Source of the DNA: Chiloscyllium plagiosum
Taxonomy: Eukaryota
Assembly (NCBI RefSeq): GCF_004010195.1
Contig: NC_057752.1
Coordinates: forward strand, 10,429,595-10,487,526
Direction: 5' to 3'
Length of the DNA stretch: 57,932 nt
Shown here: positions 1,135 through 57,932 of the stretch, piece by piece
Layout of the letters: each line of letters begins with the position of its first letter
How positions within the stretch are numbered: the first letter of the stretch is position 1
The notes under the pieces: model-generated
Seen by the model: only the letters and a program-made list of their open reading frames with translations
The model's database searches: none
Told to the model about the DNA's origin: nothing
Position numbers and translations under genes: made by a program

Positions 1135-56072
<54,938 letters not shown>

Positions 56073-56075
<3 letters not shown>

Positions 56076-56093
56076 GTCTAAATATTAGACATG
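56073..56093 (-). promoter_or_regulatory. Collagen 5' stem-loop (upper stem) containing uORF ATG TCT AAT ATT TAG and the main ATG
   Basis: Perfect 9-bp inverted repeat CATGTCTAA-TAT-TTAGACATG; uORF at 56078-56092. Confidence 0.9.
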
Positions 56094-56127
56094 CAGAATG
56101 TGTTAATGTGGAGAAGGAGTCCCGCAG

Positions 56128-56142
56128 TTACGGCGCCGTCAT
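56128..56142 (-). promoter_or_regulatory. Upstream ORF 1 (ATG ACG GCG CCG TAA)
   Basis: 4-codon ORF between the predicted TSS and the main ATG. Confidence 0.65.
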
Positions 56143-56180
56143 AAAGTCAAGCTCGGACCGGGCGAAGGGCAATCAGGTAT

Positions 56181-56330
56181 CCAGCAGCGCTCTGTTCTCT
56201 GGCCCTGGCACCGCAGGTTTTAAGTCCGCTCTCCCTACAGTGACTGCGTATATCCCCACCGCCAGGAGATCTCCACCCCCTTTGCCCACCCCCCAGCCAA
56301 GCTGGGAACCCGCCCTCCTCTCCCTCCCCA
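56181..56330 (-). promoter_or_regulatory. COL2A1 core promoter: TATA-like TTAAAA (56218-56223), predicted TSS near 56193, GC box (56309-56315)
   Basis: TTAAAA lies 30 nt upstream of CAGAGCGCTGCTGG, a motif recalled at the human COL2A1 mRNA 5' end; GGGCGGG upstream; CpG-rich surroundings. Confidence 0.75.
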
Positions 56331-57932
56331 GCTAGCTCTCCCCATTCACCAGAGCCCCTCCTTCCTGGCCAGCCAGATCTCCAACCCCCACCCCCTTCCC
56401 AAATACTGTCCCTTTTCTTCACAAAGTTCGGTGAAAGAAAATTCAACCTGAAGGTTGCGATTGTGCTTATTTTGTTTTGAATATAGACACCTTGCGGTTA
56501 AGGGGGCAAGTTTATATGAATGCCTCGAGATAGCCACGTTGCGGAGTCAGTTTGACCTTCCACCAGCACCCCCTGAAAGGGTATCAGTTTAGCGGGATGC
56601 TGAACCTTCCGTGGATGGGGTTGGTGGGGGGGGGGACTTCTCGCCTGAAGCGGTTCGATTCCCTGGGCTCTCCGCACAAGTCTTTGTCATATCGAACAGG
56701 AATGTCTTCTCAAGCGACTACAGTCCGAGTCAAACCCAAACAATTAATTCAGTAGTCCCACTCAGCTTCATAAATTGCATGTCTCTATTGTGTCGCGGTG
56801 AGTTAATGTTGCAGGTCGGGGTCCTCTCTCTCTCTCTCCCTCTTTTACAGAATCGACACTTGGGGCAGTTTCCTTCGGAAATTGTGAAGTTTGTCGCGTT
56901 CAAAAGCTAAACGATGTCCGGCTTTATTTGTTTTTTTGAGTTGGTTTTAACAGCCAGAATTACTTTTTGTGCACTCCCCCCCCCCCCCCCCACACACACA
57001 CACACACACAAAGCCCCAATTTCTGAGTCCGGGCTATTCAAAGACATTTCTTGGAGGTGAGCTGTCGGGCAGTTCCGCTTCTCTGAGAGTGAAGGGCGCC
57101 CTTGCTCCAACTTGGAGGAACCCTCCCCAGGACAGAGTCCGGGTTTTACTGCTTCATTCGCTTGGCGCAGTGTGTGTCTTTTTTTCTAGCTATGATGGGG
57201 TGGGGGTTAATTTCCAGAGGTTGTGCTGGGAGTGGGGGGGGGGGGGGACTGTTCAGCTCCGGGACAGCCGCCGCGGAGATGCATGGTCTCCTGGGGGAGA
57301 CAGCTCCGCGTTGCCCGCCGCTTGCACAGGGCGCTCTGGGCTGCTCGGGGTCACACACACACATGGAAACCTCAGCAGGTCTGCCAGCATCTGTGGAGAG
57401 AAAGGACTCGCTGCTCGATGGAGATTGTGGGTCTTTCCACCTCTGCCTGTTTCTCTCTGCAGAAGGCAGTGTAGTGCGTGGGCCCTGCCAATCAATCCCC
57501 TTCTCAACTCCACCACACTCTCAGGGTAACGGAGCCCTCTGCAATTTACTCCGGCCAAGCGCATCCTAGCCGCAAGCTTTTGTCTGAGTGAGTGGCAGCT
57601 TTCCCTCGCTCGGTACCGATGTCGTGGGGGTGTTTGGTTCTGAGAGAATGGGATGTCTTTTTCACCCCCGGAGTATGAGCCTGTCCCCAGTTATCTCCGT
57701 GCTGGGGAGTGGGGATGATTGACAGCTGTCAGTCAGACAGAAAAAGCAACCTCTTGATGGGACAGCGCCGGTGGCATTTCACCCAATGGGCGCCCGAGGG
57801 GTCCAGTGTCCTCACCTGATTGGTCCAACGGGCAAAATAGAGGCAGTTGTTATATGCAACGGCCAGAGCGAAAGTGGGAGACCGAGAGAAAGAGATTGAA
57901 GGAAAATAACAGATGCGAAAAAGAATTAGAGA

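Follow-up and report, generated by a model that had tools for sequence, protein, structure and literature searches.

The mRNAs of COL1A1, COL1A2 and COL3A1 carry a 5' stem-loop in which the stem encloses the main AUG (PMC4813270, PMC4615758, PMC12288881; statements on the literature refer throughout to the available parts of each source), and the leaders of type I mRNAs combine this hairpin with two short uORFs (PMC4813270). The element is the binding site of LARP6, an antifibrotic drug target. An NMR study describes a 5+4 internal loop and gives the two stems plus the loop as strictly needed for LARP6 (PMC12288881). Binding needs five loop bases, A and U in the 5' strand of the internal loop (B1) and C, A and G in the 3' strand (B2) (PMC4615758); the stems are needed only as a duplex (bioRxiv 2020.09.30.320564), and shortening them lowers LARP6 affinity only 2.6-fold (PMC4288179). 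Zebrafish larp6a/b double mutants have no obvious bone or fin defect (PMC7055395).

Papers on LARP6 place the element in type I and type III mRNAs only, with type II mRNAs lacking it (PMC4813270, PMC4615758, PMC4085608). [quoted passage not shown] 1991, PMC2289160). That non-mammalian COL2A1 can carry a hairpin at its start codon had therefore been pointed out in 1991, but was later lost from view. We found no paper reporting the element in shark or teleost col2a1, in a search that covered subscription and older literature thinly. COL2A1 goes unmentioned in the available part of PMC13078889, and the available parts of PMC11195269, PMC2852846, PMC5364628 and PMC3767648 hold nothing on COL2A1 leaders. 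Here we describe the start-codon hairpin of a shark COL2A1 gene and compare it with these systems.

The start codon of shark COL2A1 lies in a hairpin

The window, a stretch of 57,932 nucleotides from Chiloscyllium plagiosum, carries a collagen gene on its minus strand with the main ATG at 56075 (Table 1). Exon 2 matches only two PDB entries, both COL2A1 VWC domains (E 6e-30 and 8e-30; 2 of 177,635 sequences), and a by-eye comparison with the Xenopus protein shows the Gly-X-Y exons arranged as in type II; on these two grounds we identify the gene as COL2A1. Exon 3 spans only 17 nt (51080-51064).

An initial annotation had described a 9-bp hairpin and two uORFs in the leader of this gene, and we recovered all of them on the minus strand, as described. 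Positions 56093-56085 pair with 56081-56073 around a 3-nt loop (56084-56082), and with a G.U pair at 56094/56072 the stem reaches ten pairs. Folding predicts eight of the hairpin pairs with a probability of 0.92-1.0, and the loop-closing pair with 0.56, in all fold windows. As in the collagen 5' stem-loop, the stem encloses the main AUG, with the letters of the internal loop in the same register. The proposal that the element is the upper part of that structure is supported. Its absence from mammalian COL2A1, also claimed, agrees with the literature (PMC2289160, PMC4813270).

Table 1. Features of the COL2A1 5' region, in positions of the window
Feature	Positions	Strand	Basis or remark
Second AT-rich box, also in teleost-type locus L001	56247..56253	-	promoter-leader alignment; function inferred
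TATA-like box, also in L001	56216..56227	-	promoter-leader alignment; function inferred
Exon 1 extent in spliced X14 contig; leader at least 181 nt, both uORFs inside	55982..56256	-	lower bound; contigs do not give true start
uORF1 (MTAP*), weak context (-3 U, +4 A)	56128..56142	-	aligned with short uORF in L001
Lower-stem 5' strand position, degenerate	56100..56107	-	4/8 register positions can pair, each p<=0.07
Internal loop 5' strand (B1 position), AUUCU	56095..56099	-	not common to teleost copies
27-nt core: 10-bp upper stem (9 Watson-Crick + G.U), 3-nt loop, main AUG, 3' loop strand	56068..56094	-	identity with teleost-type loci
Perfect 9-bp hairpin, uORF2 AUG arm with main AUG arm	56073..56093	-	sequence and folding
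uORF2 (MSNI*), weak context (-3 U, +4 U), out of frame	56078..56092	-	same uORF in L001-L004
Internal loop 3' strand (B2), UCAG; also fixed by codons 2-3	56068..56071	-	C, A, G needed by LARP6
Lower-stem 3' strand position (codons 3-6, RRLD), degenerate	56060..56067	-	folding; X14 differs at 56065
COL2A1 exon 1, coding part, signal peptide, 94 nt	55982..56075	-	splice joint 55982->52816, X14 and X20 contigs
COL2A1 exon 2, VWC domain; identifies gene	52604..52816	-	PDB matches and contigs

Taken alone, the hairpin is unremarkable: it is one of seven perfect hairpins of at least 9 bp (loop 3-8) in the window. Its folding z-score is -3.1 in an 81-nt and -3.7 in a 56-nt fragment, and only -0.6 and -0.5 in fragments of 150 and 146 nt. 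None of the 39 Rfam matches (E<=5), all of them under the gathering score, overlaps 56060-56145. uORF2 starts in the 5' arm of the hairpin and its stop lies 2 nt short of the main ATG. Its AUG does not count as independent evidence, because CAUG is self-complementary and any arm that pairs with the main CAUG needs one. The main AUG has a better context than both upstream AUGs (-3 G versus -3 U).

The hairpin and both uORFs are present in spliced transcripts

We compared transcript contigs with the window for 4 of the 24 listed runs (X13, X14, X20 and X24), none of which is on record as RNA. A 5,690-nt contig of X14 (record 9) covers 56256-55982 and skips intron 1 exactly, and a contig of X13 spans 56207-56053; the 27-nt core is unchanged in both. 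Hairpin and both uORFs are therefore present in at least some of the spliced transcripts that a near-identical relative makes. Their place in the mRNA leader, as the initial annotation assumed, is supported by the X14 contig, which spans hairpin and uORFs alike, and a start site downstream of the uORFs is unlikely. The contig of X20 begins only at 56063, which is below the hairpin, and nothing came from X24; neither was counted as evidence on the hairpin.

The 27-nt core is identical in teleost-type loci

We scanned metagenomes with a pattern made of coding bases only, with no untranslated bases. The scan returned four loci (L001-L004), all of them col2a1 exon 1 with teleost-type signal peptides that resemble named eel, cod and silverside proteins. 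L002 duplicates L001 in a chimeric contig, which leaves three distinct loci (L001, L003 and L004); in L002 (1-1232) the fish sequence meets unrelated bacterial-looking sequence at a point 31 nt upstream of the ATG, and L002 is probably L001 sequence in a chimeric assembly. In L003 and L004, exon 1 continues straight into collagenous sequence, as in spliced transcripts.

All 27 core bases, hairpin loop included, are identical between the window and 4/4 loci. The eight core bases from the ATG onwards were largely fixed by the scan pattern, while the 19 untranslated bases before it were not, and these are identical (19/19) in all three distinct loci. The adjoining upstream block matches at only 4/19, 4/19 and 3/7 positions (7 bases being available in the last), about 20% ungapped identity, and synonymous third positions match at 5/11, 7/12 and 6/11, or about half. 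The full match of the untranslated bases, set against the weak match next door and at synonymous sites, argues that the 27-nt core is under strong constraint through purifying selection. It is this conservation that exceeds chance.

The three teleost-type loci thus share both the core and uORF2 with the window, letter for letter, and further likenesses extend upstream. Like the window, L001 and L003 have an upstream AUG beyond uORF2: uORF1 aligns with a short uORF (MVP*) at -111 in L001, and L003 has an upstream AUG at -114, so that this feature lies 44-47 nt further upstream in the teleost-type leaders than in the window. L001 also has the promoter boxes. The promoter-leader alignment of the window with L001 scored 91, which none of 200 shuffles reached (maximum 61); the alignment of the window leader with L003 was not above chance, with 57 of 200 shuffles scoring as high. 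The proximal promoter (56099-56366) could be aligned with that of L001 through G-rich boxes and the two AT-rich boxes.

A scan for the hairpin pattern in viral contigs gave no matches. In prokaryote genomes the same pattern gave three loci (L005-L007), which we rejected as bacterial look-alikes without a collagen signal peptide. These are bacterial hairpins with the same CATG-based arms; two of them (L006 and L007), from one alphaproteobacterial genome, are an identical 11-bp palindrome after a stop codon, REP- or terminator-like.

The lower stem is predicted not to form

We further compared the flanks of the hairpin with the parts of a LARP6 site. As in the type I and III stem-loops, the window has the letters of a 5+4 internal loop in register (AUUCU and UCAG) and two short uORFs. 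In the 5' loop strand, the third and fifth positions are U, matching U10 and U12 of the NMR model, and the second position is U in the window, where the model has G9. The first loop base of AUUCU is presumably the critical B1 A. Folding mostly predicts the 3' loop strand paired elsewhere. Unlike in the type I and III elements, a lower stem closing the internal loop, as a LARP6 site has it, is not predicted in the window, and the probability of its pairs falls to about 0 in longer contexts. The initial annotation had the lower stem broken by the changed coding start: it is indeed predicted unformed, with the divergence affecting both strands and not the coding strand alone. Of the internal loop it had seen only the 3' strand survive; that strand is present, and so is the 5' strand (56099-56095), which it had missed.

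The X14 contig differs from the window at 56065, where Arg4 is changed to Leu and one of the few possible lower-stem pairs is lost, and the X13 contig matches the window (Arg4). Both runs are labelled organism B, and the difference may be a polymorphism in a decayed lower-stem strand. We considered that the 5' strand of the lower stem was lost through a deletion of ~50 nt; such a deletion appeared with two of the three gap settings tried, and its anchoring 7-mer had p=0.34, so the idea is not supported.

The bony-fish copies differ in the complementary way. Unlike the window, the teleost-type leaders have a lower stem, an MFSF(V/M)D start and C-rich 5' loop strands: the lower stem is predicted with p>=0.8 in L001 and with six pairs in L003, and the 5' loop strands of both lack the first A and partly pair with the 3' strand. 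None of the four distinct COL2A1 leaders (window, L001, L003 and L004) shows all three parts, where L004 is truncated; all four keep the upper hairpin. What is new here, as read from these alignments, is the core common letter for letter with bony fish together with the complementary loss of the other parts. Such natural variants separate upper stem, internal loop and lower stem, and so help in asking what the hairpin does apart from binding LARP6.

Could LARP6 still bind? The protein might capture a minor conformation in which a short substitute (C-G, A.C, C-G, A-U) takes the place of the lower stem, and thereby regulate type II translation. None of the required loop letters would be missing, provided that the critical A is the first base of the loop. 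In a 50-nt fragment, forcing the LARP6-type fold costs only 1.6 kcal/mol relative to the minimum (-11.3 versus -12.9 kcal/mol), which we counted against a LARP6-independent reading. The tolerance for shortened stems (PMC4288179) points the same way, as does the need for the stems only as a duplex (bioRxiv 2020.09.30.320564). Against this, the lower-stem pairs have p<=0.07, the 56065 change in the organism B contig of X14 removes one of three pairs, the 5' loop strand is not kept in the teleost-type copies, and two stems are described as strictly required (PMC12288881). We judge a retained LARP6 site unlikely, and a compensated 4-bp replacement stem was also set aside as weak on folding. The suggestion that the shark element may still work as a LARP6 site is not supported, with the required lower stem predicted unformed; on these predictions, the window element falls short of a LARP6 site in one defining feature, and we would not class it as one.

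A possible role of the hairpin in translation initiation

We favor, with moderate confidence, a reading in which the hairpin, together with the two uORFs in weak context, influences initiation in cis while LARP6 is not stably bound. COL2A1 would have inherited the upper stem, which would still be under selection, while the lower stem would have decayed in the window lineage. Scanning ribosomes would pass two upstream AUGs in weak context, with leaky scanning delivering most of them to the main AUG, and would have to melt the 10-bp stem to reach it. Ribosomes starting at uORF2 would stop just before the main AUG and would probably be lost; termination so near a start codon is too close for efficient reinitiation. 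The outcome would be a damped, helicase-sensitive start.

This cis-acting reading builds on the observed sequence, its place in the spliced transcript and its identity with the teleost-type loci, and on a predicted fold with the upper stem formed and the lower stem open; it would entail a translational effect, use of the uORFs and independence from LARP6. A role of the hairpin beyond LARP6 fits the phenotype of the larp6 double-mutant zebrafish and the two-uORF layout of type I mRNAs. A 1988 report, in which the type I repeat is said to have had no translational effect in one assay, was counted against it. Cartilage models in fish and frog may differ from mammals in how they translate COL2A1; as long as no function is shown, the gain is modest.

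More tentatively, the apical 23-nt hairpin could be the older core of the 5' stem-loop, with a LARP6-independent job of its own and probably its own reader. COL2A1 would expose this core, since the lower stem is lost here and the 5' loop strand is changed in bony fish, while hairpin and loop are kept in both. If so, mammals and birds, in losing the element, would have truly changed how cartilage collagen is translated, and zebrafish col2a1 would allow a direct test.

The alignment itself does not prove an RNA structure: the 10/10 stem pairs never vary across the leaders that cover the hairpin (three distinct bony-fish leaders and two near-identical relatives, X13 and X14), which leaves no covariation in support of one. 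The loop is no more variable than the stem, and pairing does not account for its invariance. The constraint might accordingly bear on the sequence and not on an initiation hairpin, a specific factor reading the palindrome in the apical RNA loop or in DNA. The loop and the synonymous positions of uORF2 are invariant without compensatory change, which speaks for such a reader, and a double half-site of p53-family type that overlaps the palindrome starts at 56070 (0+2 mismatches, spacer 7). The window holds eight such double half-sites, and Kozak bases, the AUG and pairing explain most positions. The homologous type I element is also an established RNA element (PMC12288881, PMC4615758, PMC4813270), and we think a sequence reader improbable.

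Still less probable is a slowly decaying relic with no function in the window lineage today. The lost lower stem, the different starts of mammals and birds and the fact that mammals manage without the element would suit it; the 19/19 untranslated bases, retained where the neighbouring block has about 20% ungapped identity and synonymous sites about 50%, speak against it. Pairing of the palindrome between mRNAs, reportedly proposed in a 1987 paper on type I mRNA and here imagined to cluster COL2A1 transcripts for homotrimer assembly, is the least credible reading, as the self-duplex energy of the 23-nt core (-26.1 versus -20.6 kcal/mol for two hairpins) is what any near-perfect hairpin would give, and the gain of 5.5 kcal/mol corresponds to an estimated affinity of ~0.1 mM, far above mRNA concentrations.

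Probable separate erosion of the element in several lineages

Beyond the cis-acting role that we favor, the comparison bears on the age of the element. Sequence comparison identifies the window element as the upper stem in the collagen 5' stem-loop of vertebrates, older than the split from bony fish. The age proposed in the initial annotation stands in this respect (27/27 bases in 4/4 loci), and its novelty for COL2A1 does not, given the Xenopus hairpin of 1991. The window shares with the Xenopus laevis type II mRNAs the gene and the place of the start-codon hairpin (PMC2289160); the Xenopus palindrome was given as data not shown, the available passages mention neither uORFs nor fish, and the likeness is one of description, not of untranslated letters. 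Xenopus starts MFSFVD and thereby keeps the coding half of the lower stem, which the window does not.

The 3' strand of the lower stem is encoded by an MFSF-type start. COL2A1 of eel, cod, silverside, Xenopus, garter snake and rattlesnake has such a start. The initial annotation had cast shark COL2A1 as an intermediate. We rejected the window copy as INTERMEDIATE (an intermediate towards mammals), as MFSF-type starts are for the most part kept in teleost, frog and snake COL2A1; the same distribution suggests that the window copy eroded separately. Among 27 exon-1-like proteins, 12 start MFSF(V/M)D, 10 differ at residues 2-5 and 5 are incomplete at the N-terminus, and the start of the window is found in none (0/27). 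Codons 3-5 appear to drift repeatedly in COL2A1-type signal peptides, with a non-MFSF start in 10 of 22 full N-termini. Other COL2A1 starts are MIRLG in hamster and whale and MARHR in a white-eye, a bird. Protein searches for cartilaginous-fish N-termini gave 0/138 candidates and 5/91, none of them shark, in collections where full-length collagens were largely missing.

Since the collagens of types I and III share the MFSF-type start, the simplest account is that ancestral COL2A1 had the full element, which then eroded separately in the window lineage, some bony fish, birds and mammals. The element may be ancestral to clade A collagens, as the initial annotation proposed. Its absence from type II mRNAs applies only to mammals: the Xenopus hairpin of 1991 and the present sequences point to a strictly kept core in COL2A1 outside mammals.

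Several fish-type COL2A1 proteins (P0111-P0113, P0118, P0120, P0051 and P0062; known as protein only) start MFRL(V/A)D, MILSAD, MFIFVD or MYIFAD, which suggests further independent erosion of the element.

Splice forms and a hairpin at the intron 2 splice site

The loose ends of X13 contain both the exon 1 to exon 3 join (55981) and the exon 2 to exon 3 join (52603). The IIB and IIA splice forms both exist in the related organism of this run. The 5' splice site of intron 2 lies inside a perfect 13-bp hairpin with a 12-nt loop (52566-52603, minus strand). This hairpin is AU-rich, has a z-score of -3.3 and is the sole perfect hairpin of at least 11 bp (loop 3-15) in the window. Apart from being AU-rich, it resembles a stem-loop controlling the splicing of exon 2 in mammalian COL2A1.
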